A stretch of DNA of 64,000 bases, taken from contig JAZJXT010000006.1 of assembly GCA_040390725.1 (NCBI GenBank), positions 367-64,366 on the forward strand, given 5' to 3'. Below are positions 5,646 through 40,865 of the stretch, piece by piece (position 1 is the stretch's first letter; every line of letters begins with the position of its first letter). This DNA comes from Patescibacteria group bacterium. GTDB taxonomy: Bacteria > Patescibacteriota > Minisyncoccia > Phycocordibacterales > UBA9973. Both the position numbers and the translations under genes were made by a program. The notes beneath the pieces are model-generated. The model was not told the origin of the DNA. It did no database searches and was given only the letters and a program-made list of their open reading frames with translations.

Positions 5646-5744
5646 AAGACATTATTTTTACTAAAACTCGCCTACTCTTTAAAGGATTTTCGGCTACTCC
5701 TTATTTATTTGTCAAAAAACTTTACCAAGCTCAAAAAAGAACAA

Positions 5745-7949: not shown

Positions 7950-10127
7950 TTAAATAATAATTTTTAAAACATCTAGGAACGACCTTGCTTGAAAATCAGA
8001 ACGAAGAGCTACGTTTTTCCTGTATATATGCTCAGTATATGCTATAAAATTTTCTGCTATGCCACTTTCTTTTATTTCATAATCAGTGTACCCATCACCT
8101 ATAATGATTGCCGGCATCGGCAAAGAAAGAGCTTTTAGTTGTTTTACTTTTCCTAAATGTTCAGAAGTTAACCGTGAAGAATCAACTCCTATTACTCGGC
8201 CGAATTTATTAAATTTAAATTTATTGGCAAATACATTCCCTGCTGGTATGCCTAATTTTTTTATAGTCGGCAAGATCATCTCTTCGAAACCACCGGAAAC
8301 TACATAAATATTTTCAGCATTTGTATTGAAGAAATCTTCATTGTCCAAGAATGATTTGGTAATAAATTTGGTTATCTGCTTGCCTGCTTCTAATACTTGG
8401 TCTCGTGTCGGCGCCATCAATGCCATTCTTTTTGCCAGTGATTCATCGAAACTTATTTCACCATTCATCCCCGAATTAGTAATATCTTTTATTTTCCAAA
8501 TAATTTGTTTTTTATTCGGGTTATTTTTTAAAGATAAATCTGCCAAAAAATCCAAAGATTCAACACATACAATAGTGCTATCAAAATCAAAAATAATACT
8601 TTTGTATTTTAACTTTTTACTATCACCAACCATTACTCCCCTGTTAAATAAATTCATCGGGTCTACGTCTTTTTTTAATTTATTTAATAAATTCATTTCT
8701 TTTTCACTATACAAAAAACTCAAAAATGATCGACCATTTCCCTTTGGATCTCTTACTGTTTTTCTGCCACATCCATGCTCAGCAGAAATAGTGCCGCCCA
8801 GCATCAAAGGAACATTTAAAAGTTTATCGTATATTTTTTCAGCCTTTTTCCAATTCTTCACAGAGTCTGGCAAAAAATTAAAATGTAAGTGCTGGTCCCC
8901 GATATGCCCCCACATTGCCGTGGCAGGAGCACTATTTTTTGGACAAAATTTCTTAAAATCTTTCTCCGCCTTTTTGTATATTTTCAATAAAACTTTAAAT
9001 TTAGAAACAGGTACGGCAAAATCAGTCCCGAGTTTTTTCATATTATTTTTTTTCAAGAAATTACGTACAGCACTTGGTATGCCATACCTGACTATTTTTA
9101 TAACTTCTTCACCATATTCTTTATTTACTTTAAAAGACTTCTTTGCTCTCTTTATTATTTTTTCTATTTTTTTATCCCCTTTCAAATACTCCACCTCTAC
9201 CAAAGAACTTTCCATGCTAAACGGAAGCTTGTTATTTTTAGAAAACAATTTTAAAGAATTTGAATCAATAAATTCCAAAGAAATAATCCCCTTTTGTCTT
9301 TTTAAATTAAATTTAAATTTTTGAAGATTTTCCGCAAAAGCCAAGGCTTTTTTTTCTTTATTAAAAGAATAAATATATGACATTATTTCCTTTTTTGGAG
9401 AAATGCCCACTTCGGCCTGAAGGATCAAGCCGAAAATTCCCTCTGTACCAATAAAAAGATCTATCAAATCCATATTTTTTGAAGTTAAAACTCCAGCGGA
9501 ATTTTTAACTTTTGGATTCGGCAATTTTGGTAAATTTATAATTTTTCCATCGAGTTTTATTTTCCAATTCTCTGCACTATATTTACCTCGAGGAATATAA
9601 AATATTTTTCCATTTGGCAACATTACCCATAATGCTTTCACATGGTCACGAGTCGGACCGAAACCAAAAGTCCGTGGCCCGGAGGCATTCGTCGCCACAT
9701 TGCCACATAGAAATGCATTCACCTCTCCCGGATGTGGAGCATAAAAAAGATTTTCTTTATCTAGTGCTAAAATTAATTTTTTTAACACTACCCCTGCGGA
9801 CACTATACAAGTCGTTTTATTTTTATTTAAAAATATTCCATTTGATATTTTTTTATAATTTTTTAAGTCCCCTATATTTTCAAATAATTTTTCAGTGCTT
9901 AAGATTATCGCTTCTTCATATGGCATGATACCGGCATTAAGCCCTGTCTTTGCTCCGCTAAAAGTTATGGGTACTTTATTTTTTATTGACTCATTTACGA
10001 TTCTTTTTACTTCAATAATATTTTCAGGATAAAAAGCTCGGCAAGAACTAGCAGACCTCAATGGCTTTATCCTGCCTGCATCCAATAAGTTCTCCTCTTT
10101 TATTATTTTTTGTTTGATTTTTTTCAT
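7950..10127 (-). CDS. serB: fusion protein: N-terminal FAD-linked oxidase (GlcD/D-2-hydroxyacid dehydrogenase type) with a C-terminal HAD phosphoserine phosphatase
   Basis: N-terminal FAD-binding PCMH-like region (ITFSGAKTGLNAG) and the FAD-oxidase C-terminal motif GHIGDQHLH (GHxGDGNxH-like). C-terminal HAD motifs FDFDSTI ... GDGYTD. Confidence 0.65.
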   Translation of the reverse strand: MKKIKQKIIKEENLLDAGRIKPLRSASSCRAFYPENIIEVKRIVNESIKNKVPITFSGAKTGLNAGIMPYEEAIILSTEKLFENIGDLKNYKKISNGIFLNKNKTTCIVSAGVVLKKLILALDKENLFYAPHPGEVNAFLCGNVATNASGPRTFGFGPTRDHVKALWVMLPNGKIFYIPRGKYSAENWKIKLDGKIINLPKLPNPKVKNSAGVLTSKNMDLIDLFIGTEGIFGLILQAEVGISPKKEIMSYIYSFNKEKKALAFAENLQKFKFNLKRQKGIISLEFIDSNSLKLFSKNNKLPFSMESSLVEVEYLKGDKKIEKIIKRAKKSFKVNKEYGEEVIKIVRYGIPSAVRNFLKKNNMKKLGTDFAVPVSKFKVLLKIYKKAEKDFKKFCPKNSAPATAMWGHIGDQHLHFNFLPDSVKNWKKAEKIYDKLLNVPLMLGGTISAEHGCGRKTVRDPKGNGRSFLSFLYSEKEMNLLNKLKKDVDPMNLFNRGVMVGDSKKLKYKSIIFDFDSTIVCVESLDFLADLSLKNNPNKKQIIWKIKDITNSGMNGEISFDESLAKRMALMAPTRDQVLEAGKQITKFITKSFLDNEDFFNTNAENIYVVSGGFEEMILPTIKKLGIPAGNVFANKFKFNKFGRVIGVDSSRLTSEHLGKVKQLKALSLPMPAIIIGDGYTDYEIKESGIAENFIAYTEHIYRKNVALRSDFQARSFLDVLKIII

Positions 10128-15339: not shown

Positions 15340-15648
15340 TTATATATAATTTTTTAATTTATTTTTTATAACTTCAAATTCTTCAACAGGGATAACTGCT
15401 ATTTTACGAGCAAGTCTTCTGGTATCAATTAATTTTACCTGAGAAATAATAGCTGATGAACCAGTAGATGGTATTTCTACATACCAAGAACCTTTCTTTT
15501 TATTTGAAGTTAAAGGCACACCGATAAATGTATTTAATGTAACTTTTTTAATAACCAAAACCGGACGCTCAAAAAGCTCGTGTTTTCCACTTTGCTCACT
15601 GCCGATATTTAAACCGACAGAACAAAACCAAATGTCTCTTTCTGACAC
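15340..15648 (-). CDS. mazF: MazF/PemK-family endoribonuclease toxin; no obvious partner antitoxin ORF
   Basis: GLNIGSEQSGKHELFERPVLVIKK matches the MazF/PemK core. Followed by a strong hairpin terminator (gaaacccccgcaagggggtttc). Confidence 0.55.
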   Translation of the reverse strand: MSERDIWFCSVGLNIGSEQSGKHELFERPVLVIKKVTLNTFIGVPLTSNKKKGSWYVEIPSTGSSAIISQVKLIDTRRLARKIAVIPVEEFEVIKNKLKNYI

Positions 15649-15799: not shown

Positions 15800-16633
15800 A
15801 TGTTATCTACAATAATACCAATAGCTTCCGCATTTTTGGCGGCAATCGCCGGGATATTGGCTCGTGTTTTACTTAAAGACACTCCCGCAAAAAAAATGCT
15901 GTCTATAAATTTCCTTATTATGGGAGCAACGCTTCTTGTAATATCCCCTTTCTTTTATAAATTTACAGCTTCTTGGCAAAGTGTTAGTATCGTACTTTTA
16001 ATTGCAATCATTGATACTCTTGGAAATTATTTTTATTTCAAAACATTTGAAAAAACAGAAGCGAGCATTGCTCTGCCATTACTATCTCTCGCTCCGGTTG
16101 TAACATTTTTCTTTGGAGCAATTATTTTAAATGAATATACTTCAATACTTAAAATTATAAGCTCGTTAGTAATTGTTGTGCTTATTATTGTAATTTCAAT
16201 AGACTGGAATGAACTGCCAAAATTTAGAAAAGCAACATTATACCCGGCGCTAATTTCAGCATTTTTATTTGGACTATCAGCTATCCCAAGCAAATATCTA
16301 CTTTCAACCATTCACGCCATAAATGCGCCGACTCTATATATGTTTCGTGCAATACTTATCGGAATTTTTGCACTTATGTTTTTAAAAAACTCGTTGAGTA
16401 ATCTAAAAACAAAAACATACGGCTTTATATTTATCAGAGGGTTATTTGTTATAGGACAATGGATTCTTCTTTATTATGCGATAACCTTAGGCAACACAGG
16501 GGTTGCAGTCACCCTAGGAAATATCACTCCTATATTTGTACTATTTTTAAGTCTTATTTTTCTCAAAGAGAAATTCAATTGGAAAAAAGCTTTGGCAGCA
16601 ATTGCAATTCTTGCCATATCTTTTACGCTTTAA
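15800..16633 (+). CDS. DMT/EamA-family transporter (about 10 TM)
   Basis: Two internally repeated 5-TM halves; hydropathy pattern typical of EamA. Confidence 0.5.
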   Translation: MLSTIIPIASAFLAAIAGILARVLLKDTPAKKMLSINFLIMGATLLVISPFFYKFTASWQSVSIVLLIAIIDTLGNYFYFKTFEKTEASIALPLLSLAPVVTFFFGAIILNEYTSILKIISSLVIVVLIIVISIDWNELPKFRKATLYPALISAFLFGLSAIPSKYLLSTIHAINAPTLYMFRAILIGIFALMFLKNSLSNLKTKTYGFIFIRGLFVIGQWILLYYAITLGNTGVAVTLGNITPIFVLFLSLIFLKEKFNWKKALAAIAILAISFTL

Positions 16634-17163
16634 TTTTTATTAAAGACAGAGACAAACTTCCCTTCGGAAATTCTTTTAGCAACTTCGGACGAGCCGAATA
16701 TTTGTCCATTCATGCAAACATACACTCCTGGTTTTAAAGTTTTTACAGATGCTAAGGCGTAACCTAAATTAAAAGGTGCATCAGATGGCGAGAATCCCGT
16801 CAGAGGTATCATCGCCCCAGTTAAAATAATCACTTTATCTTTTCTTTTCAACTGCGATGTTAAAAATCTGGCAGTATCAGGCATAGTATATGTGCCGTGC
16901 GTAATTATTATTTTTTTTGACTTTGATTTTTCTATAGCTTTTAAAATTTTCTTTAAATCTTCACTCGTTAAAGAGCGGCTATCTTTCATGCAAATATCAA
17001 CAAAAGAAATTACACCCCCCCCCTCAATTTTTAAACTTTTTATAAAAGAAGGTAACACGGATTTCTTCAAAGGAACAATAGCATCCTTTATGCCTTCATA
17101 ATAAGAATCAATCGTCCCGCCTGTTATAATAAACTCTATATTTTGATTGTTTTTCATAACCAC
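16630..17163 (-). CDS. L-asparaginase N-terminal-domain protein
   Basis: IITGGTIDS and ITHGTYTM correspond to the asparaginase TGGTI and HGTDTM motifs. Only ~177 aa (one domain). Confidence 0.5.
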   Translation of the reverse strand: MVMKNNQNIEFIITGGTIDSYYEGIKDAIVPLKKSVLPSFIKSLKIEGGGVISFVDICMKDSRSLTSEDLKKILKAIEKSKSKKIIITHGTYTMPDTARFLTSQLKRKDKVIILTGAMIPLTGFSPSDAPFNLGYALASVKTLKPGVYVCMNGQIFGSSEVAKRISEGKFVSVFNKN

Positions 17164-17450
17164 ATAATAACAAAAACAAAACTTAAATACAAATAAAAAA
17201 AGTCCTCCCCAGGGGGAAGACCATAATTAATTACTCTAGTCGCCACCCAGACCAAAGGCCTGGATCAGTCTCACACAGTGAGACCCGTTTTAAAAATAAA
17301 CTAATCTTCTTAATTAATGTGAATCAGGCTTTTAATTAAAATAAGAAAATCTATTGCAAGAACTCGCGAACGAGGTCGAGGAACTAACTGCATTTAGCAT
17401 AACATAAGTAAAAGCTAAAAGAAATAATTTTAATACTCCCTCATTGAAAC

Positions 17451-18578
17451 TTACGCGTCGACTTTTTTGATGAGGTTATCTGGAGTAACGACACTTGTTT
17501 TTGCATTTGGATATAATTTTAAAAACTCCTTGAAAGATACATCTGTGTCGCTCCATTTACATTCATAAGCGATGATGTCCAATCCTGATTTTTCAATAAA
17601 ATCTATTTCTAAACCGGTTCGTGTTCTCCAAAACATTATCTCCGGAGGAAAAGTTTCCAGTGTTCCATATTTTAACCTTTCCGTTATAAAAAAATTCTCA
17701 AATATCACCCCTTTATCAGCCCTAACTTCAAGCAATTTTTTAATATCAACAAGAGAATTCCTCACGCCAAGATCTAAGAAAAAAACCTTAAAAGCTTTCT
17801 TCAACTCATTACGAGAATTTTGCGAAAAAGAATGAACTATTTTAATAATGAAAGATTGCTCGAGTAAACGAAGATATTTCTGCACCACGGAACGGCTTAT
17901 GCCCAAACTCACAGAAAGCTCATTTACTGAAACCATCTGCCCTATTTGCAAGGCAAGCATTTTTACCAAATCTTCAAAAATACGCGGATTGCGTATTGCT
18001 TCAAAAACAAAAACATCTTTATATAAATAATTAGTGGCTATATTTTTTAAAACAATTTCTTTTTCAGCTCTTGTTTCGGCTGATACAACGGCGGGATAAG
18101 TTCCAAAAAGCAAATAATCCATCAGGTCTTCTTTTGTAATATTTTTTACCATTCTAATTTCTTTAAGAGAAAGAGGCAAAAGAATAAATTCAAAAACTCT
18201 GCCGGTCATCGGTTCGTTTATTTTATTCGCCAAATCAAAAGAGCTTGAACCGGTGGCAATAATTTGAATCTCGGGATATGTGTCATGAAATACTTTTAAA
18301 ATTGTACCGATATCTTGAATAGTTTGAGCTTCATCAAAAACAACAATTTTTTTACCTTTTATCAAAGACAATAAAGCATTAGGTTTACCGACTATAAAAT
18401 GTTCTCGAACATCATTAATCTGGCAATCAAAATATGCGCCATCATTGCCATACTGACTAATAATTTTTTTTGACAAAGTAGTCTTGCCGGACTGTCTGGG
18501 TCCTAAAATTGCAATCATTCTGCCCTTAAACAATAAAGACTCTATTTTGGATTCTATTTGACGCTTATATATAATCAT
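17451..18578 (-). CDS. AAA+ ATPase of the COG1373/DUF4143 type, inserted at a duplicated secY 3' end
   Basis: Walker A GPRQSGKTT, Walker B VVFDEAQ and a C-terminal DUF4143-like region. Its last 7 codons (LIKKVDA) and ~50 nt duplicate the secY 3' end. Confidence 0.6.
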   Translation of the reverse strand: MIIYKRQIESKIESLLFKGRMIAILGPRQSGKTTLSKKIISQYGNDGAYFDCQINDVREHFIVGKPNALLSLIKGKKIVVFDEAQTIQDIGTILKVFHDTYPEIQIIATGSSSFDLANKINEPMTGRVFEFILLPLSLKEIRMVKNITKEDLMDYLLFGTYPAVVSAETRAEKEIVLKNIATNYLYKDVFVFEAIRNPRIFEDLVKMLALQIGQMVSVNELSVSLGISRSVVQKYLRLLEQSFIIKIVHSFSQNSRNELKKAFKVFFLDLGVRNSLVDIKKLLEVRADKGVIFENFFITERLKYGTLETFPPEIMFWRTRTGLEIDFIEKSGLDIIAYECKWSDTDVSFKEFLKLYPNAKTSVVTPDNLIKKVDA

Positions 18579-18637
18579 ATAATAGTCATTATAACAATTT
18601 GCTCTTTAAAAAGCAAATTGTCTTTAAATACAAAATC

Positions 18638-19909
18638 TTAGTACTCTCTCATTGAGACTTGTGCGTCAACTTTTTTGATGAGGTCTAGGACAACAGAGAC
18701 GACGATGAGAAGAGCCGTACCACCAAGGGCAATAGCGGTGATTCCTGTAGCTGCGCGCATAACGAGTGGGAGGACTGCAATGAGACCCAAGAATGTAGCG
18801 CCCATCATCGTGATGCGATTTAATACTTTTGAAATGTATGCGGAAGTACTTGCGCCCGGGCGAATACCAGGAATAAATGCTCCATTTTTCTGCAAGTTGG
18901 TAGATAATGCTTCCGGATCAAATGTAACTGCAGTGTAGAAATATGTGAAGAGAAAAACCAAAATAAAATACAATACAGAGTATAGCCACGATGTTTGTGA
19001 AAACGACATCAACACATGAGAAATACTCATCAAGATAGGCTTCGTAGAAGTAGCCAAAAATGTGCCGATCATTTGAGGGAAAAGCAAAATAGATAGTGCG
19101 AAAATTATCGGAATAACTCCGGCTTGATTCACACGAAGTGGCAAATAAGTAGAACCACCTCCGTAGACTTTTGTGCCACGAACTTGCTTTGCATAAGTGA
19201 CAGGGATAGGGCGTTCTGCTTCGGTGACAATGACGACACCCGCGATAACTATCGCTCCCATAGCTATAAACAAAAGGTAAAGAGGGATTTGTGAAACATC
19301 AAAAGTAAAAAGAAGTTGACCGATGTGTGTAGGAATACCGGCTACGATACCTGCAAAAATTATTAACGATACTCCATTACCAATACCAAATTCTGACATA
19401 AGCTCCCCTATCCACATAAGTAAAATAGAGCCGGCAACAACTACAATCACATTTGTAACTTGGCCAAAAATACTCAAATCACCCAAGATGTGTTGATTGT
19501 GCAAAAGTGCAAGCAAAGAAAAACCTTGAATCGCAGCCAAAGGAATAGTGATGAGTCTGGAATATTGAGTAAATTTCTTTCTACCTAGTTCACCTTCTTC
19601 ATGATAAAGCTTTTTCAAAGCGGGAATCATGATAGTCAACAACTGCATAATAATAGATGAAGTAATATACGGACCGACACCCAACATTAAAATAGAGAGA
19701 TTGGAAAGTCCTCCACCGGAAAAGATGTTTAAGATTCCAAAGAATTGATTATTATTTAAAAATTGATTTAAGGCTACTGAGTCAATGCCTGGAATAGGAA
19801 TAGCCGCAAGCAAACGAAATACAACTAGAGAACCAAGAACAAACAAAATACGCTTGCGCAATGTAGCATCACTCCAAACTTTTTTTGCTTTAATCCAAAA
19901 ATTTTCCAT
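18638..19909 (-). CDS. secY: preprotein translocase subunit SecY
   Basis: 10-TM protein of 423 aa directly downstream of rplO in the spc-type cluster. Confidence 0.85.
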   Translation of the reverse strand: MENFWIKAKKVWSDATLRKRILFVLGSLVVFRLLAAIPIPGIDSVALNQFLNNNQFFGILNIFSGGGLSNLSILMLGVGPYITSSIIMQLLTIMIPALKKLYHEEGELGRKKFTQYSRLITIPLAAIQGFSLLALLHNQHILGDLSIFGQVTNVIVVVAGSILLMWIGELMSEFGIGNGVSLIIFAGIVAGIPTHIGQLLFTFDVSQIPLYLLFIAMGAIVIAGVVIVTEAERPIPVTYAKQVRGTKVYGGGSTYLPLRVNQAGVIPIIFALSILLFPQMIGTFLATSTKPILMSISHVLMSFSQTSWLYSVLYFILVFLFTYFYTAVTFDPEALSTNLQKNGAFIPGIRPGASTSAYISKVLNRITMMGATFLGLIAVLPLVMRAATGITAIALGGTALLIVVSVVLDLIKKVDAQVSMREY

Positions 19910-22187: not shown

Positions 22188-22373
22188 CTACCAACTCGAC
22201 TTGCGGATGCCCGGAAGCATTCCTTCATTTGCTAATTCTCTGAAACAAATACGGCAAAGACCAAAGTCTCTCATGAAGCCATTACCTCGGCCACAACGAA
22301 AACATCGATTTTTCTGTCGACTTGAAAACTTTGGTTTCTTTTTTGATCGTGCTATGACGGATGTTTTTGCCAT
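22188..22373 (-). CDS. rpsN: 30S ribosomal protein S14, zinc-ribbon type (type Z, 61 aa)
   Basis: CxxC...CxxC (CFRCGRGNGFMRDFGLCRIC). L5, L24 and L14 are not upstream; tmRNA is there instead. Confidence 0.85.
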   Translation of the reverse strand: MAKTSVIARSKKKPKFSSRQKNRCFRCGRGNGFMRDFGLCRICFRELANEGMLPGIRKSSW

Positions 22374-22526
22374 AAATAATTAAATTGGGATCTGCCCTGT
22401 TAATATCACGCTCTTTTTCTTTAACCCTTTAAAAACTAAAGAATTAAAGGAGAAAAGCGGATTAATCAAGACCGTATTCCCTTGCCTGCCATACTAGCAA
22501 ATTAGAAATAAATAGTCAAATATTTG

Positions 22527-22923
22527 TGGAACTGACGAGAATTGAACTCGTGTGCAAAAGGTTGTTGCAGAGAAATCGACATGCTTGGCTCATTTTTTTG
22601 TTTAAATTTTAAAATTCTTAAATGAGCAAAATATTTTAAAATCGAGTTCTAAGTTTTCGTGAAATATGCGAACAAATATTTCCTTATCCCGATAATATTA
22701 TGCCTCGTCTCATATATCGGAAGTCTATGAGGGAGACACCAGTTTGGCTTACGCGAAAGCTGGAGCGAAAGCAAAATCATTCATACCGAAGTATGGAGAA
22801 GCTTTTGCAAACGCCTTAGAAGTCAATTTTGCAATTAACATTTGAGCGAATTTTTTCGAGATTACGCTCATGCTCGGCATGCATCAATAGCAAAAGGCCT
22901 TTTGTCTATGCCTTGCAGTCCCC
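22527..22923 (-). ncRNA. ssrA: tmRNA (SsrA)
   Basis: Minus-strand 5' GGGGACUG pairs with 3' CAGUUCC + A (the acceptor stem has a G3-U wobble, the alanine identity element). T-arm acgag-TTCAATT-ctcgt. Internal tag-like reading frame ...gat ttt gct ttc gct cca gct ttc gcg TAA (..DFAFAPAFA*). Immediately adjacent to smpB. Confidence 0.7.
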
Positions 22924-28035: not shown

Positions 28036-28773
28036 ACCTTGTTTTTTTATTACACTTCCTCTTCTCTGTAATTCAACCAATCATTTATAAAATCTTTAAA
28101 CTCTTTGTGAGATTGAAAATACTCTGGAAAATTTTCCAAATTTAAAATAGATTTTTCTATCCTGAAAGACCCGCAGTGATCTATAAAACTAGAAAATTTA
28201 TAATCAGCTAAAAACTTTTTTGTTTCTGCTAAATTTTTAATTCCCTCTTCCTTCCAAGTCTTATCTATCAACTTTACTGGATTTAATCCGATATAAGCAA
28301 ATAAATATTTTAAATAATTATCACCCATAGCGTGTCTACCTTTAAATGTTCCTTGAAATAAACTGCCAGTACGATTGTTCTTTTTATTGAAATACATAGT
28401 ATATGCCGTTGTTAACTTCTGCATAAATAAACTAATTCCATTTTGAACTTTTTCTCTAGCTAGAATATGAAAGTGATTAGGCATTAAACAATAAGAACCA
28501 ATTTCAACCAAAGTATCACTTTTTTCCAATTCCCAAAAATCTGACAAGGTTAAACCTTGTTTTTGGTAATCCCCTATATCTACTTTTTCGATACTATTAC
28601 ATAAATACAAAAGAACCATAAATCTATCGTAGTCATTTATGTCATCAAAAATAATTCTTTTATCTACTCCTCTATTATACAGATGGAAAAATTCACCAAT
28701 TGAAAATTCAATATTTCTAGTCATTGTTATATTTTAACAAAAAATAAAGGCAAAAACAAGGTTTAACCTTGTT
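28025..28773 (-). mobile_element. IS200/IS605-like (RAYT-like) element: Y1 transposase gene bracketed by identical palindromic hairpins
   Basis: Hairpins aacaaggtt(t)aaaccttgtt at 28025-28043 and 28755-28773, plus a third copy inside the CDS at 28545-28562. Confidence 0.55.
28050..28724 (-). CDS. IS200-like Y1 (HuH) transposase / REP-associated tyrosine transposase-like
   Basis: YCLMPNHFHIL (HuH motif of Y1 transposases) and GSLFQGTFK (GxLWQxR-like). Confidence 0.6.
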   Translation of the reverse strand: MTRNIEFSIGEFFHLYNRGVDKRIIFDDINDYDRFMVLLYLCNSIEKVDIGDYQKQGLTLSDFWELEKSDTLVEIGSYCLMPNHFHILAREKVQNGISLFMQKLTTAYTMYFNKKNNRTGSLFQGTFKGRHAMGDNYLKYLFAYIGLNPVKLIDKTWKEEGIKNLAETKKFLADYKFSSFIDHCGSFRIEKSILNLENFPEYFQSHKEFKDFINDWLNYREEEV

Positions 28774-35999: not shown

Positions 36000-38774
36000 C
36001 TAATCGCTCTGTCTTTCGTATTTTGCCATGATTTCGGCCTCTACCTCTTCCCTATCCCTGCCATATTTTAGATATGAAAGCTCTTTTAGGCTGTCCACTA
36101 TCTCAACATTCCCGGCCTCTGGTGCAAGGGTATGCATATTAAAAGGCTTTGTCGGCTGGCCATTTACCAGCATGCTCACATAAGCATTATAATTATCAAG
36201 CTTCATGATATCTATCGCTTTAAAAGTCGGCTGAAATCTTTTTTCCAAAAAATCTGCATCTTCGGAGCTGACGCGGAAAATAGCCATCGAACCGACGTTA
36301 CCAAAAACAGCATCTTTGATATCATCTTCGAGCTGAGCTATATACTGGTGCGCAATATTTAACGACAAACGATATTTACGAGCTTCGGAAAGAATCGAAG
36401 CGATAGAATCAGTCGTGACGTTTTGGAATTCATCTATATACAAATAAAAATCATTCATCTTTTTACCAAACATATCAACACGAGAAAGAGCCGCCATTTG
36501 TATTTTACCCACGAGCACGAGACCTATCAAATTCGCATTCATCTCGCCCAGGCGCCCCTTGGAAAGGTTCACAAGAAGAATTTTTTTATTGTCCATAATT
36601 TCTCGAAAATTAAAAACGGACTTTTCTTGGAGCACTACGGGACGCATGATGTCATTTGAAATAAAGTTATCAAATTTGGAAGTAATATAAGGCACGAAGT
36701 TCGCCAAACTTTGATCTCCCGTCGTCTGCTCGGCTGAAATCCAGAATTGCTTGATGATAGGATTTTTACATTTTGCGAGTTTCATATCACGAAATTCTTT
36801 ATCACCGAGTACGCGCGAAATCTCGAGCAAAGTACAGCCGGAATCCGGGTCTTCCATTATTAAAAAAGCGGAGTTTTTAAAATACTGTTCGAACATCGGC
36901 CCACCGGAAGTTTTCATGTCGAAAAGTTTATTAAAAATTCCCATCAATTCATTTACCACAAAAGTTTTCTGCTCAGGATATTTGCGGTCAAATTCGAGCA
37001 TATTTAGGCCCATCGGGCGCGCAGTGTAGGCAGGGTCAAAATAAATAACATCATCAATGCGCTCTTTTGGAATACGCGAAAGAATAGTCTGAATATCTGT
37101 GCCGTGCGGATCAATATAACAACAACCATCACCATTTCGTATGTCTTGCGTTATCATGTTCAACATAATATTGGTCTTACCGGTACCCGTCTGACCTATA
37201 ACATACATATGTCGCACGCGGTCCTCGCGAGCCATATGTATTTCAGTGTCGCGCCCACGATAGCTATTTACTCCCAAGGTAATCCCCTCTTTGCCCATCT
37301 CCAAAGGAGCCGGAGCGACTCCTGCCTTTGCTTCTTTGAGTTGAGGCATTCCTAAAATTCCTATCGGGAAATGAAAAACAGAAGCGAGCTCTTTTAAGTT
37401 CATCGGCATTATTCTTTTCGGCATAAAAGCGCGATACGAAAAATCATGAAAAAATTCTTTCAGAGCGGAACCTTTTAACTGCTCAAATAAAATAGAATTG
37501 CTGGCGGGCTCGGTGAATTGATTAAAAGAAGATTCTATTTCTGCCAAGATTGATTCAGCTCTTTCTTTATTTTCAGCAGAAGCGACGACGCGAATACCGG
37601 CTTTCATAATAGTACTTTTTAATTTGTTCGCTATATTTTCAGCCGCATTTTGATCAACAGACCTGCGCCCTCTCATATATTTTGGATCATTCTTTCCCTT
37701 ATTATCAAAATCACCCAAGACAAGATCTCTAGAAGCTTTCCAGATAGCTTGATGAAATTTATAAAAATTATCAGATGCATGCATTATGGATGTTCCGCTT
37801 TTTACATCGTCTAAAATCATATGAAAATCTTGAGTGAATTTTTCTCCCGCAGGAGCAAAGAGAAATTGAATAGCGGCACCCTCACCTTCTGTTTTTAATT
37901 TAGAAAAAACATTTAAAACCGTACTCATAGGATCATGCTCGATATTATCGTAAGTTTTTATCGGCAACACAGAACGCTGAGAAAAATGCGCACATGCACC
38001 GACAGAAACACCCTTGTCATTAAATACATTATAGTCATCTAAAACTTCTCGGATTTTTGCATCATGATAAAAAGCTAAAACTTGTTTTTCAAAAAGTGAA
38101 ATACGATTGTTTGGTATTGCAGCATAAATAACCACTGAATCGCTCTGGCTACCCAAGGCTACTTCCAAAACAAAATAATTATCCTTGGAATTATTCCTAT
38201 CTTCGGATATGGACTGCATGCCGGCATAAAATTGTTCCATCGCGCCGATAAATTCTTTGAAACCTTTTTTATCGCCTTCATCTTTTGGCGGAGGCAATGT
38301 GACTTCAAAAAGCGTCATATTTAAAGACTTCCAAAGAGGTGTGCCTTCTTTTAAGCCGGGTATTATTTGCCCTGTACTTAAATATTGAATCAATAGTCTA
38401 TGAAAATCATCATCGATATGCGGGCTATTCATTTCCTCAACTACAGACATGGCATTGCGAATTCCTTTTGTAAGCATAATACCCAAGAGCTCTTCCATGG
38501 TAGCATCATGAGGCTCCGGTTTTAATTTTAGAACGATGGCTTCGGCTTCTTTTTTTTCAATGATATGATTTTTATGCACGGCTTGCTCTAGTGGAATTTT
38601 TTTATATTCATGAGCAACAGCCCGAGCTGCTTCTTCGGCAGCATGTTCAAAATGCCCTTTGTCTTTTAATTCCTGTTCTTTTTTAGCGACATGCGCGCGC
38701 AAATAATCAAGCTCTTCATGGGGAGTTTGAAACTTCGGCATTTCTTTTAAAAAACTTCCTGCAGTTCCTAACAT
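36000..38774 (-). CDS. large P-loop ATPase of the VirB4/VirD4 (TraG/TraD, AAA_10/DUF87) type
   Basis: Walker A IGQTGTGKT, Walker B LYIDEF, downstream ARKYRLSLNIAHQ (RKxG...TQ/AHQ-like motif of FtsK-HerA-clade T4SS ATPases), and a ~500-aa N-terminal extension. Confidence 0.5.
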   Translation of the reverse strand: MLGTAGSFLKEMPKFQTPHEELDYLRAHVAKKEQELKDKGHFEHAAEEAARAVAHEYKKIPLEQAVHKNHIIEKKEAEAIVLKLKPEPHDATMEELLGIMLTKGIRNAMSVVEEMNSPHIDDDFHRLLIQYLSTGQIIPGLKEGTPLWKSLNMTLFEVTLPPPKDEGDKKGFKEFIGAMEQFYAGMQSISEDRNNSKDNYFVLEVALGSQSDSVVIYAAIPNNRISLFEKQVLAFYHDAKIREVLDDYNVFNDKGVSVGACAHFSQRSVLPIKTYDNIEHDPMSTVLNVFSKLKTEGEGAAIQFLFAPAGEKFTQDFHMILDDVKSGTSIMHASDNFYKFHQAIWKASRDLVLGDFDNKGKNDPKYMRGRRSVDQNAAENIANKLKSTIMKAGIRVVASAENKERAESILAEIESSFNQFTEPASNSILFEQLKGSALKEFFHDFSYRAFMPKRIMPMNLKELASVFHFPIGILGMPQLKEAKAGVAPAPLEMGKEGITLGVNSYRGRDTEIHMAREDRVRHMYVIGQTGTGKTNIMLNMITQDIRNGDGCCYIDPHGTDIQTILSRIPKERIDDVIYFDPAYTARPMGLNMLEFDRKYPEQKTFVVNELMGIFNKLFDMKTSGGPMFEQYFKNSAFLIMEDPDSGCTLLEISRVLGDKEFRDMKLAKCKNPIIKQFWISAEQTTGDQSLANFVPYITSKFDNFISNDIMRPVVLQEKSVFNFREIMDNKKILLVNLSKGRLGEMNANLIGLVLVGKIQMAALSRVDMFGKKMNDFYLYIDEFQNVTTDSIASILSEARKYRLSLNIAHQYIAQLEDDIKDAVFGNVGSMAIFRVSSEDADFLEKRFQPTFKAIDIMKLDNYNAYVSMLVNGQPTKPFNMHTLAPEAGNVEIVDSLKELSYLKYGRDREEVEAEIMAKYERQSD

Positions 38775-38817: not shown

Positions 38818-39591
38818 TTATCTAGAAGTTAAAATTTCTGCTTCGCCGTCGGTGATGGCAATAGTGTTTTCGAAATGCGCGCTGCGCTTGCCATCGGATG
38901 TGCGGAAAGTATAGCCGTCTTTATCGATTGTCACATTTTTGGTGCCATTATTTAACATCGGCTCGATAGCTATGACCATACCTTTTACCAGTTTCGCGCC
39001 CGTGCCCTTTTTGCCAAAATTCGGAATATATGGATCTTCGTGAATTGCTTTACCTACTCCATGCCCGGAAAGAACTTCTACAATGCCGAATTTGCCTTGA
39101 GATTTTACAAAGTTTTCTATAGCGTAGCCAATATCCCCCACTCTATTGCCTACTCGCGCAGCATCGATGCCGACGTGCAATGCTCTCTCAGTAATATCCA
39201 TGAGTTTTTCTGATTGAGCATTGACCTTGCCGACAGGCACCGTGAGAGCCATATCAGTATAGAGTTCTTTGTGCATCAAACCTAAATCAATCGAAACAAT
39301 ATCCCCTTCTTTTAATATTTTTTCTTCACTGGGAATGCCATGCACGACTTCTTCATTTACTGAAACACAAAGAGATGCCGGATAAGGAGTCTTGGCACCT
39401 TCTGGGCGATAATTTAAAAATGCCGGATAATCCCCGCCGTCTCGTATTAATTTTTCCGCATATCTATCCAAATCTTTTGTAGAAATTCCCGGAGCCACCA
39501 TGTCTTTTACTTTATACAAAACAGTCGCGAGCCTCCTGCCCCCTTCACGCAGTATTTCTATTTCTTCCGGTGTTTTTATTATAATTGCCAT
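38818..39591 (-). CDS. map: methionine aminopeptidase type I
   Basis: Pita-bread fold metal ligands and a ~257-aa length. Confidence 0.8.
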   Translation of the reverse strand: MAIIIKTPEEIEILREGGRRLATVLYKVKDMVAPGISTKDLDRYAEKLIRDGGDYPAFLNYRPEGAKTPYPASLCVSVNEEVVHGIPSEEKILKEGDIVSIDLGLMHKELYTDMALTVPVGKVNAQSEKLMDITERALHVGIDAARVGNRVGDIGYAIENFVKSQGKFGIVEVLSGHGVGKAIHEDPYIPNFGKKGTGAKLVKGMVIAIEPMLNNGTKNVTIDKDGYTFRTSDGKRSAHFENTIAITDGEAEILTSR

Positions 39592-40277: not shown

Positions 40278-40865
40278 TTAATATCCTAAAGCTTTAATAA
40301 TATCTTTTTGCACATCTTCGACGGACTGCTCGCCATTTACGGTAAAAAGTTCATAGCCTTGCTTGCCTTTAAAATAATTCATTGAAGGAATTACATTATT
40401 TACATATTCATCAAATCTTTTTTCAATGCCTTCCCTGGTATCATCAGCCCTGCCTCGCAATAAATTTCTTTTCATTGCTTCTTCTCGGCCTACTTCGATA
40501 TAAATTATTTTTACCTTTTCTCTTCTAAAAAATTTTATCATTTTTTCAAATGATTCTGCCTGTACTAAAGTGCGAGGATAACCATCCGCTATCAAATTTT
40601 TTTCATCAGACAAAGAAGAAGTCAAAATACTAGTGAAAATAGAAGTGGTTAAAAAATCAGGCTGGAGCTCCCCGCGAGCCATAGAGTCTTTTATCAAATA
40701 CCCAACATGATTGCCGGACTCTACTAGCTTCCTGTATTCATTTCCGGGATAAGCGCAAATAGTTTCCTTGGATGTCTTCTCTTTCAAGAAGTCCATCAGG
40801 AGCTTTATTTGTGTGCCCTTGCCGGAACCAACTATACCAAAAAATACTAAAGTTTCACTTTTCAT
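40278..40865 (-). CDS. adk: adenylate kinase
   Basis: GIVGSGKGTQ P-loop and the LID LLRGRADD. Confidence 0.7.
   Translation of the reverse strand: MKSETLVFFGIVGSGKGTQIKLLMDFLKEKTSKETICAYPGNEYRKLVESGNHVGYLIKDSMARGELQPDFLTTSIFTSILTSSLSDEKNLIADGYPRTLVQAESFEKMIKFFRREKVKIIYIEVGREEAMKRNLLRGRADDTREGIEKRFDEYVNNVIPSMNYFKGKQGYELFTVNGEQSVEDVQKDIIKALGY

Follow-up and report, generated by a model that had tools for sequence, protein, structure and literature searches.

Tn7 inserts at attTn7, where TnsD reads the conserved 3′ end of glmS, and two of its other proteins are a PD-(D/E)XK nuclease (TnsA) and an AAA+ ATPase (TnsC). Homology-facilitated illegitimate recombination occurs in naturally transformable bacteria, and bacteria of the Candidate Phyla Radiation (CPR) are thought to take up DNA. 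PDC-S01, an ATPase fused to a PD-(D/E)XK domain, ranks fourth in frequency among the “defences” of prokaryotes; it is prevalent in lineages with small genomes and lacks experimental validation (PMC12988326). Its DUF4143 domain is classed in the PD-(D/E)XK superfamily (PMC3424549), and what defined the PDC candidates was their “embedded” position in other defence systems (10.1101/2024.01.29.577857). Here we describe a gene of this family in a 64-kb stretch of a Nomurabacteria (CPR) genome (contig JAZJXT010000006.1; the whole stretch is called the window), where it is inserted at the 3′ end of secY between two copies of the secY tail.

A direct-repeat search of the window gave a pair of 59-nucleotide (nt) copies with 83% identity and a spacing of 1208 nt (Table 1). 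BLAST of the element against the whole window returned only this pair (E = 1.4e-11), with no third secY-tail copy and no second ATPase gene in the 64 kb. The proximal copy reads DLIKKVDAQVSMREY followed by a stop on the minus strand and completes a full-length SecY; the last 15 secY codons and the stop codon lie within it, and the repeat extends ~12 nt further, ending 4 nt short of a palindrome. The last nine codons and the stop of the ATPase open reading frame (ORF) are located in the distal copy, which reads NLIKKVDA, stop, VSMREY, stop in the ATPase frame. A sequence-only reading of this DNA had already noticed the duplicated secY end beside the ATPase gene, and the repeat search, BLAST and frame reading confirm it; the positions given then, 17429–17483 and 18637–18690, were a few bases off. 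The statement that the ATPase ORF ends in the SecY residues LIKKVDA and stops through a CAA-to-TAA change was exact. The same L15-secY-ATPase-asparaginase junctions are found, at 100% identity, in a 3.5-kb contig of an independent Logan assembly.

The locus is a real insertion. A scan with one genome per species yielded 80 secY loci, all from Nomurabacteria or Paceibacterota, whose proteins align with the SecY of the window over residues 1–423 at 71–87% identity and agree with its tail. In 78 of these 80 related species the secY tail is single and no ATPase gene follows it; among the 81 secY loci, an ATPase gene after secY together with a second secY tail occurs only in the window and in one relative, L003. 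A neighbour-joining tree built on six concatenated proteins places the window beside L002 and L006, and L003 beside L008 and L007. The site is empty in each of these four neighbours, where secY is followed by a cmk-like gene, adk and map. These comparisons support the earlier proposal that a gene was inserted with a junction that duplicates or rebuilds a conserved gene's 3′ end: the same arrangement is not general among the relatives, and empty sites are found even in the nearest, L002 and L006. The nearest proxy for an empty site with the same downstream gene is L038, in which a 65%-identical asparaginase homolog comes directly after secY, starting ~20–40 nt past its stop codon. Typically, secY is followed by a convergent cmk-like gene, adk, an amino-acid-kinase-family gene, map and a TraG-like gene. 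In 39 of 76 loci the distance from secY to the cmk-like gene or adk is at most 130 nt, and in ~16 loci this interval carries 1.1 kb or more of additional DNA, which makes it a variable spot.

The second occupied site involves a different ATPase. The L003 ORF reads NIVDHFNQ, then IKKVDAQISMREY and a stop, running through a 41-nt copy of its own secY tail with 97.6% identity, and this ATPase-secY structure was assembled in 9 contigs from several samples. The ATPases of the window and L003 share 43% identity and belong to different subfamilies. Each has much closer relatives elsewhere (82–83% identity for the window ATPase and 76% for that of L003), and those carry no SecY tail; the relatives of the L003 ATPase are 13 residues shorter than it. 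The parsimonious reading is two independent insertions of different subfamilies into the same 45–60 nt of secY.

The limits of the inserted segment can be drawn from family loci in other contexts. Among loci with ATPases 59–83% identical to that of the window, the palindrome is the left limit of conservation; it is kept in 18 of 19 of them, and the upstream sequence differs from locus to locus. In the 66–71% subfamily, conservation starts at a hairpin ~45 nt further upstream. N-terminally extended ORF calls in homologs translate the palindrome as QFAFKRAICY, and it is probably an operator for the winged-helix domain of the ATPase protein itself. The extended −10 element TGTTATAAT overlaps the right palindrome half and ends 9 nt upstream of the ATPase ATG; TATAAT or a close variant is kept at this position in ATPase relatives. 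A consensus promoter scan did not list it, its −35 hexamer TTGCTT fitting at only 3 of 6 positions. At the other end, conservation among relatives stops at the last conserved codons (TPDNLI or ENIVxHF), beyond which C-terminal tails and downstream DNA vary. The window repeat abuts both conservation limits, and the inserted unit is therefore 17477–18625. Its GC content is 32.5%, below that of its flanks (39.6% for secY). The segment has no terminal inverted repeats, its best end alignment scoring 7 against an average of 6.8 for shuffled sequences. Its single ORF matches AAA_14, DUF4143, and weakly a helix-turn-helix (HTH) and a RecA-like P-loop in Pfam and NCBIfam; no tyrosine or serine recombinase was found in the 1,149 nt, and no rve or DDE domain in the ORF (Pfam).

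Table 1. Features of the secY-ATPase locus, in window coordinates.
Feature	Position	Strand	Description and evidence
Asparaginase N-terminal-domain gene	16630..17163	-	downstream neighbour; Pfam Asparaginase E = 6e-25
Spacer, 254 nt, non-coding	17164..17417	-	between distal repeat and asparaginase-like gene
Distal repeat copy	17418..17476	-	displaced secY tail; direct-repeat search and sequence reading
ATPase ORF, 375 aa	17451..18578	-	AAA+ ATPase, winged helix, PD-(D/E)XK nuclease (AAA_14 + DUF4143; PADLOC PDC-S01)
Inserted segment	17477..18625	-	1,149 nt between repeat copies: palindrome, promoter, ATPase ORF up to codon 366
Extended −10 promoter element	18588..18596	-	TGTTATAAT; direct sequence reading
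Palindrome, perfect 14+14	18594..18621	-	ACAATTTGCTTTTT and AAAGAGCAAATTGT; inverted-repeat search
Proximal repeat copy	18626..18684	-	functional secY tail from codon D409, stop codon, ~12 nt beyond
secY	18638..19909	-	complete, 423 aa; Pfam SecY E = 1e-100

The spacer downstream of the distal copy holds several hairpins (fold z-score −2.7) and a strong intrinsic terminator at 17201–17222 in a terminator scan. Rfam gave no match for it, none of 150 related loci contains a homolog, and BLAST matches only the window's own Logan contig; since no homolog was found in the fetched loci, the spacer may lie outside the element. Elsewhere in the family, L092:3668–3726 is a solo, 96%-identical copy of the element's left end, standing 88 nt after the ATPase stop and consisting of the hairpin and half the palindrome, with a 6-nt deletion; a second cassette, since deleted or replaced, may have left it behind.

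The encoded protein matches the PADLOC PDC-S01 model (PDLC04789) with E = 7.6e-121, residues 4–371 aligning with model positions 2–371 of 375. In Pfam, AAA_14 covers residues 20–141 (E = 1.9e-27) and DUF4143 residues 187–343 (E = 9e-37), with the weak HTH between them. The Walker A motif G26–T34 (GPRQSGKTT) and the FDEAQ motif are conserved across 40 homologs, in all of which G26, R28, Q29, G31, K32, T33, T34, D82 and Q85 are invariant, as are the nuclease residues D326, E339 and K341; E83 and A84 are at least 90% conserved. The AlphaFold2 model has a mean predicted local distance difference test score (pLDDT) of 89. Its structural neighbours are AAA+ proteins that have a winged helix, namely Orc1/Cdc6, RuvB and STAND ATPases, with TnsC and MuB lower at ranks 46–49, and the modelled likeness to these last two is of the generic AAA+ kind. 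By sequence, solved structures gave nothing beyond P-loop matches to RecA. From the PADLOC match and the invariant ATPase and nuclease residues, the gene is a candidate for anti-phage defence. The cassette appears to have been acquired horizontally, as ~70%-identical ATPases occur in records named Paceibacterota, Peregrinibacteria, Magasanikbacteria and Gracilibacteria and its GC content is below that of its flanks. A phage origin was considered and set aside: an IMG/VR scan gave no relatives and PHROGs only a weak clamp-loader match.

The differences between the two repeat copies are mostly synonymous. Over 48 coding nt, the copies in the window differ by seven transitions, of which five are synonymous, one changes D to N and one changes Q to a stop. 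Counted in the same way, synonymous and non-synonymous differences number 2 and 0 in L003, 9 and 0 in L101, and 9 and 4 in L131, giving, codon by codon, 25 against 6 over the four loci, where random substitution would give 19–35% synonymous. The bias has P ~2e-5 in L101 alone and P = 0.004–0.045 in the window alone. At L101 and L131 no ORF covers the distal copy, which rules out translation as the cause of the bias there. An in-place duplication with one copy decaying neutrally would be expected to leave mostly non-synonymous differences. Because the differences are mostly synonymous, the copies look, as far as their sequences tell, like two alleles of a working gene end rather than a fresh target duplication decayed in place; of the two possibilities offered by the sequence-only reading, “target duplication or reconstituted gene end”, the latter fits better. 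Identity at third codon positions is 0.67–0.86 between copies and ~0.4–0.6 between the secY of the window and any available relative, so the donor would be a closer relative than any sampled genome. Comparison with 76 relatives did not tell which of the two copies is the native secY tail, and a sliding-window search traced no recombinant tract in secY, whose third codon positions are saturated against every relative.

Similar junctions exist elsewhere in the family, as the search suggested in the sequence-only reading was able to show. We compiled ~40 distinct family loci from metagenome contigs, the genome loci L003 and L061, contigs with named homologs, and four plasmids; nearly all are from Patescibacteria, and the four plasmids belong to other phyla. 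Flanking direct repeats were found at 8 of the ~40 loci, and at five of these they are the 3′ end of a co-oriented upstream gene. Beside the 59-nt (83%) and 41-nt (97.6%) secY tails of the window and L003, these are a 28-nt, 100%-identical repeat of the last 9 codons of rpmB in L108–111 (Pfam Ribosomal_L28), to which the ATPase is fused in frame (FL, then IKKMVEKK and a stop), a 75-nt, 88%-identical repeat of the 3′ part of a 328-aa upstream ORF in L101, and a 71–87-nt repeat of the 3′ end of a glycosyltransferase gene in L131, which recurs 169 nt after the ATPase stop. The remaining three are a 22-nt repeat present twice at the second ATPase gene of L084, a 36-nt repeat in L089 and a 21-nt repeat in L119/120, the last two 100% identical. 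In a geometry-matched count, repeats flank 6 of 34 ATPase genes and 14 of 1250 other ORFs (Fisher p = 6.5e-6); the control positives are genes of the type linked to repetitive extragenic palindromic (REP) elements and REP-associated tyrosine transposases (RAYT), intergenic palindromes, and an ORF with PaaX_M and Cas2-like similarity. Overall, the repeats span 21–87 nt and their position relative to the stop codon varies from −38 to +169 nt.

Several other candidates did not hold up. Homologs P0088 and P0023 have odd C-terminal tails that do not duplicate the end of an upstream gene; in P0095 (L131) there is a repeat, 169 nt past its stop. A 111-nt repeat in L061 is no insertion footprint and proved to be the N-terminal region conserved between two pilin paralogs. 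A structured RNA or tRNA target was rejected, as Rfam finds nothing at the element; there is no tRNA at the window repeat nor within L084, L089, L092, L108, L119 and L131, and the one tRNA-Val of L101 is well away from its repeat. Nor is there any sign of recent transposition, since identical proteins on 5–24 contigs share a single context.

Two further observations concern the reuse of sites. L084:4001–6673 and L094:736–3284 each hold tandem ATPase genes of different subfamilies, 38–41% identical to each other, which suggests repeated arrival at the same spot. In L021:8278–9041, a 182-aa ORF with a PaaX central Cas2-like domain lies 6 nt after secY between perfect 40-nt direct repeats (8278–8317 and 9002–9041) that are the 3′ end of the convergent cmk-like gene; its homologs in L029 and L054 are flanked by palindromes instead. 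With L021, the secY hotspot has another type of single-gene cassette that comes with a duplicated gene end. As this non-ATPase ORF has such repeats, the phenomenon is not exclusive to the ATPase, and L021 is the only one of the other insertions there to have target repeats.

We give somewhat better than even chances to the reading that a single-gene cassette joined the secY end when incoming DNA carrying a secY tail and the ATPase gene recombined with the resident tail. The inserted segment would be a horizontally acquired cassette made up of a palindromic operator, an extended −10 promoter and one PDC-S01/COG1373 ORF, integrated within the last 15 secY codons so as to leave two secY ends. Of these, the proximal one would keep the essential secY intact, and the distal one would be a displaced remnant into which the ATPase ORF, having no fixed stop of its own, reads in frame and terminates. 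The two ends are most likely two secY alleles, one resident and one imported with the cassette from a related lineage, the incoming DNA having already carried the combination “secY tail + ATPase”. This could have happened by Campbell-type integration of a circularised cassette or by homology-facilitated illegitimate recombination after DNA uptake; by the latter route, the right-hand junction would fall in a microhomology between the native ATPase end (PDNLIK; in relatives PDNLL/IK and a stop) and DLIKK of SecY, at the nucleotides ACCTCATCAAA. The recombination function would come from the host or act in trans rather than be encoded by the cassette. We infer both the donor or recipient origin of the two copies and the recombination route. 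The “site-specific integration” of the sequence-only reading is apt for the outcome rather than for a mechanism, the 1.15-kb element containing no integrase or other recombinase.

A number of points weigh against this recombination. Neither a donor genome nor a circular form was seen, and the longest perfect match between the window copies is 16 nt, short for a RecA-dependent crossover. There is no integrase in the element and none was identified in the window, whose other ORFs were not all scanned; the sole mobility gene noticed there is RAYT/Y1 transposase-like, a type not making such repeats. At 32 of the ~40 family loci, including the four plasmid homologs, no flanking repeats are present, and identical ATPase proteins, on 5–24 contigs, are always in one genomic context. 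Translation of the distal copy as the end of the ATPase in the window and L003 means that selection on this tail could explain part of the synonymous bias at these two loci. A pre-existing copy of the secY tail leaves the first arrival at a new target unexplained, and recombination leaves unexplained why two unrelated subfamilies chose the same 45–60 nt.

Alternatively, the ATPase-nuclease gene could be an autonomous minimal mobile element whose product recognises gene 3′ ends and cuts them with a wide stagger, the cassette being joined in and fill-in giving the duplication of 21–87 nt; the use of one secY site by two subfamilies speaks for this. We regard it as unlikely. It would also account for the roughly 16-fold enrichment of flanking repeats around the family compared with other ORFs, for repeats that abut the limits of the conserved unit, and for the fully identical repeats of L108, L089 and L119, as in a fresh duplication. 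The invariant nuclease triad and Walker motifs, the presence of the DNA-loading AAA+ proteins MuB and TnsC among the structural neighbours alongside Orc1/Cdc6 and RuvB, and the definition of the family as “embedded” inside other systems (10.1101/2024.01.29.577857) point the same way. However, a strand-transfer or recombinase domain and terminal inverted repeats are absent from the element, the window has a single copy of it, and identical proteins never occur in two contexts. The synonymous-biased divergence between copies, above all the 9/0 of L101 outside an ORF, is unlike in-place decay; repeat length varies, as does position relative to the stop codon (−38 to +169 nt); the PaaX/Cas2-like ORF of L021, not an ATPase, has the same kind of repeat; and the four plasmid homologs (Treponema, Desulfosarcina, Trichlorobacter and Bacteroides) have none. 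The broader proposition that PDC-S01 ATPase-nuclease genes are, beside or instead of defence, minimal autonomous elements, whose AAA+/winged-helix/PD-(D/E)XK protein catalyses or directs the entry of its own 1.1–1.2-kb gene into the 3′ ends of conserved genes with long duplications that spare the target, seems to us distinctly unlikely.

Synonymous bias here and perfect repeats at other loci could both be covered if an identical in-place duplication came first, by any mechanism, and ordinary homologous recombination later exchanged secY and its proximal repeat for a diverged allele, in a tract that stops at the cassette; the outcome would resemble a two-allele origin. DNA uptake by CPR bacteria would allow this, but we think it quite improbable: the differences span the whole repeat as far as the cassette, including the 12 nt after the stop, so that the tract must end exactly at the junction; the same coincidence is needed independently in L101 and L131; and no recombinant tract is traceable in a secY with saturated third codon positions (~0.4–0.6 identity). 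Without any mobility, an ancient local duplication of the secY end with gene gain would have been inherited vertically and lost from most relatives. The 17% divergence of the repeat does indicate that the event is not recent, and an asparaginase-like gene lies further downstream in both L003 and the window; yet at least four precise losses would be needed on the tree, the two ATPases are of different subfamilies, each with closer relatives in unrelated contexts, and the asparaginase-like protein of L003 is only 29.5% identical to that of the window, which leaves vertical inheritance very improbable. An assembly artefact or chimeric contig might be suspected in a metagenome-assembled genome with unusual surrounding synteny, but it is scarcely credible given that the same junctions occur in the separate Logan assembly, that the equivalent L003 structure is present in 9 contigs from several samples, and that an assembler would not be misled by 59-nt copies with 83% identity.

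The surroundings of the locus have changed on a larger scale as well. The sequence-only reading had attributed the break in the secY-adk-map order to the insertion. Pfam confirms adk at 40278–40865 and map at 38818–39591, and the adk/map block directly follows secY in most relatives; the location of both genes is thus borne out, and the insertion as sole cause is not. Because L038 and L074 have the order secY, asparaginase and, further on, adk without any ATPase gene, and because the operon has a further break upstream of S14, adk and map were displaced by a separate, larger rearrangement and not by the 1.15-kb insertion. The upstream cut is in the spc operon of ribosomal proteins (window 22188–22922), where a transfer-messenger RNA (tmRNA) gene (22524–22922, minus strand) stands in the place of L5, L24 and L14 in relatives; no genes for these three proteins were found in the 64-kb window, and the S14-to-secY block is separated from its usual neighbours on both sides. 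Around map, not all relatives have the amino-acid-kinase gene that lies between adk and map, and in L036:10182–11133 map is bracketed by a 71-nt direct repeat of ~90% identity overlapping its stop codon. Right after map in most relatives, and at 36000–38774 (minus strand) in the window, lies a gene for a 924-aa protein with weak matches to TraG/VirD4 coupling proteins, an unusual placement beside housekeeping genes.

Other features of the window were recorded in passing. The RAYT (Y1, IS200-like) transposase-like gene at 28068–28724 (minus strand) is 48% identical to copies in L079 and L046, which have short palindromic repeats on their flanks. Near rplJ and rplL, at 15340–15648 (minus strand), there is a solitary MazF/PemK-type toxin gene. 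Rfam matches in the window are confined to the 5′ end of 23S rRNA, the tmRNA and a DUF805b RNA motif at 5669–5702 (minus strand), the last scoring 39.5 bits, just above the Rfam gathering threshold.

PDC-S01/COG1373 is among the most abundant uncharacterised prokaryotic gene families, is routinely counted as a defence system and has been recognised only through being “embedded” in other loci. The window shows one such embedding at nucleotide resolution: a bare promoter and ORF in the coding end of an essential gene, with a reconstituted end on one side and an allele-like remnant opposite. The footprint is that of an integrative element lacking an integrase, and it raises the question of whether the host, a trans-acting recombinase or the ATPase-nuclease itself is responsible. 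It also bears on how CPR bacteria with tiny genomes gain accessory genes without harming packed essential operons. If ordinary recombination after DNA uptake is the cause, the locus is a tidy but unsurprising example of a gene-gain hotspot; if the autonomous element were real, it would account for the abundance of the family and its frequent “embedded” position in other operons. The family itself is known. The searchable literature on DUF4143, COG1373, PF13173/PF13635 and PDC-S01 holds nothing on mobility, insertion mode, flanking repeats or fusion to host-gene 3′ ends, and by that measure the bare-gene insertion in the ends of essential genes, the allele-like repeats and the reuse of the same site without a recombinase are undescribed.

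Set against the systems described so far, the ATPase of the window has the domain order of PDC-S01/COG1373 and a full-length match to its hidden Markov model. With free-standing homing endonuclease genes the element shares a single nuclease gene with its own promoter, a place among conserved genes and a patchy distribution; those genes, however, spread by repair copying and leave no flanking duplication, whereas the window has a 59-nt duplication in which both copies keep the presumed target. Insertion sequences and DDE transposons have terminal inverted repeats and fixed short duplications, in contrast to the 21–87 nt, variable offsets and allele-like divergence seen here, and they place near-identical copies in different contexts, whereas the window holds one copy and identical proteins keep to one context. 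Tn7 likewise inserts by the 3′ end of an essential conserved gene without inactivating it and has a nuclease and AAA+ repertoire. Unlike Tn7, the element has no TnsB-type DDE transposase, terminal inverted repeats or 5-bp duplication, its insertion is inside the coding tail rather than downstream, and Orc1/Cdc6, RuvB and STAND ATPases outscore TnsC/MuB as structural neighbours. Homology-facilitated illegitimate recombination, with a one-sided anchor in a conserved gene and microhomology, would give a donor-type proximal and a recipient-type distal tail with the junction in CTCATCAAA; as proposed here, it would need a donor that already held the ATPase beside secY. Elements driven by integrases into the 3′ ends of tRNA, tmRNA and protein genes differ from this 1.15-kb single-ORF element in having a tyrosine or serine recombinase, and the repeats described here vary in length, position and target among close family members. 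What is shared with these elements comprises repeats of the target 3′ end beside an intact target gene, reuse of one site by different elements, and allele-like repeat copies, comparable to attachment (att) repeats with a replacement gene end; att-like repeats with a reconstituted gene are found in L003, L108, L101 and L131 as well.

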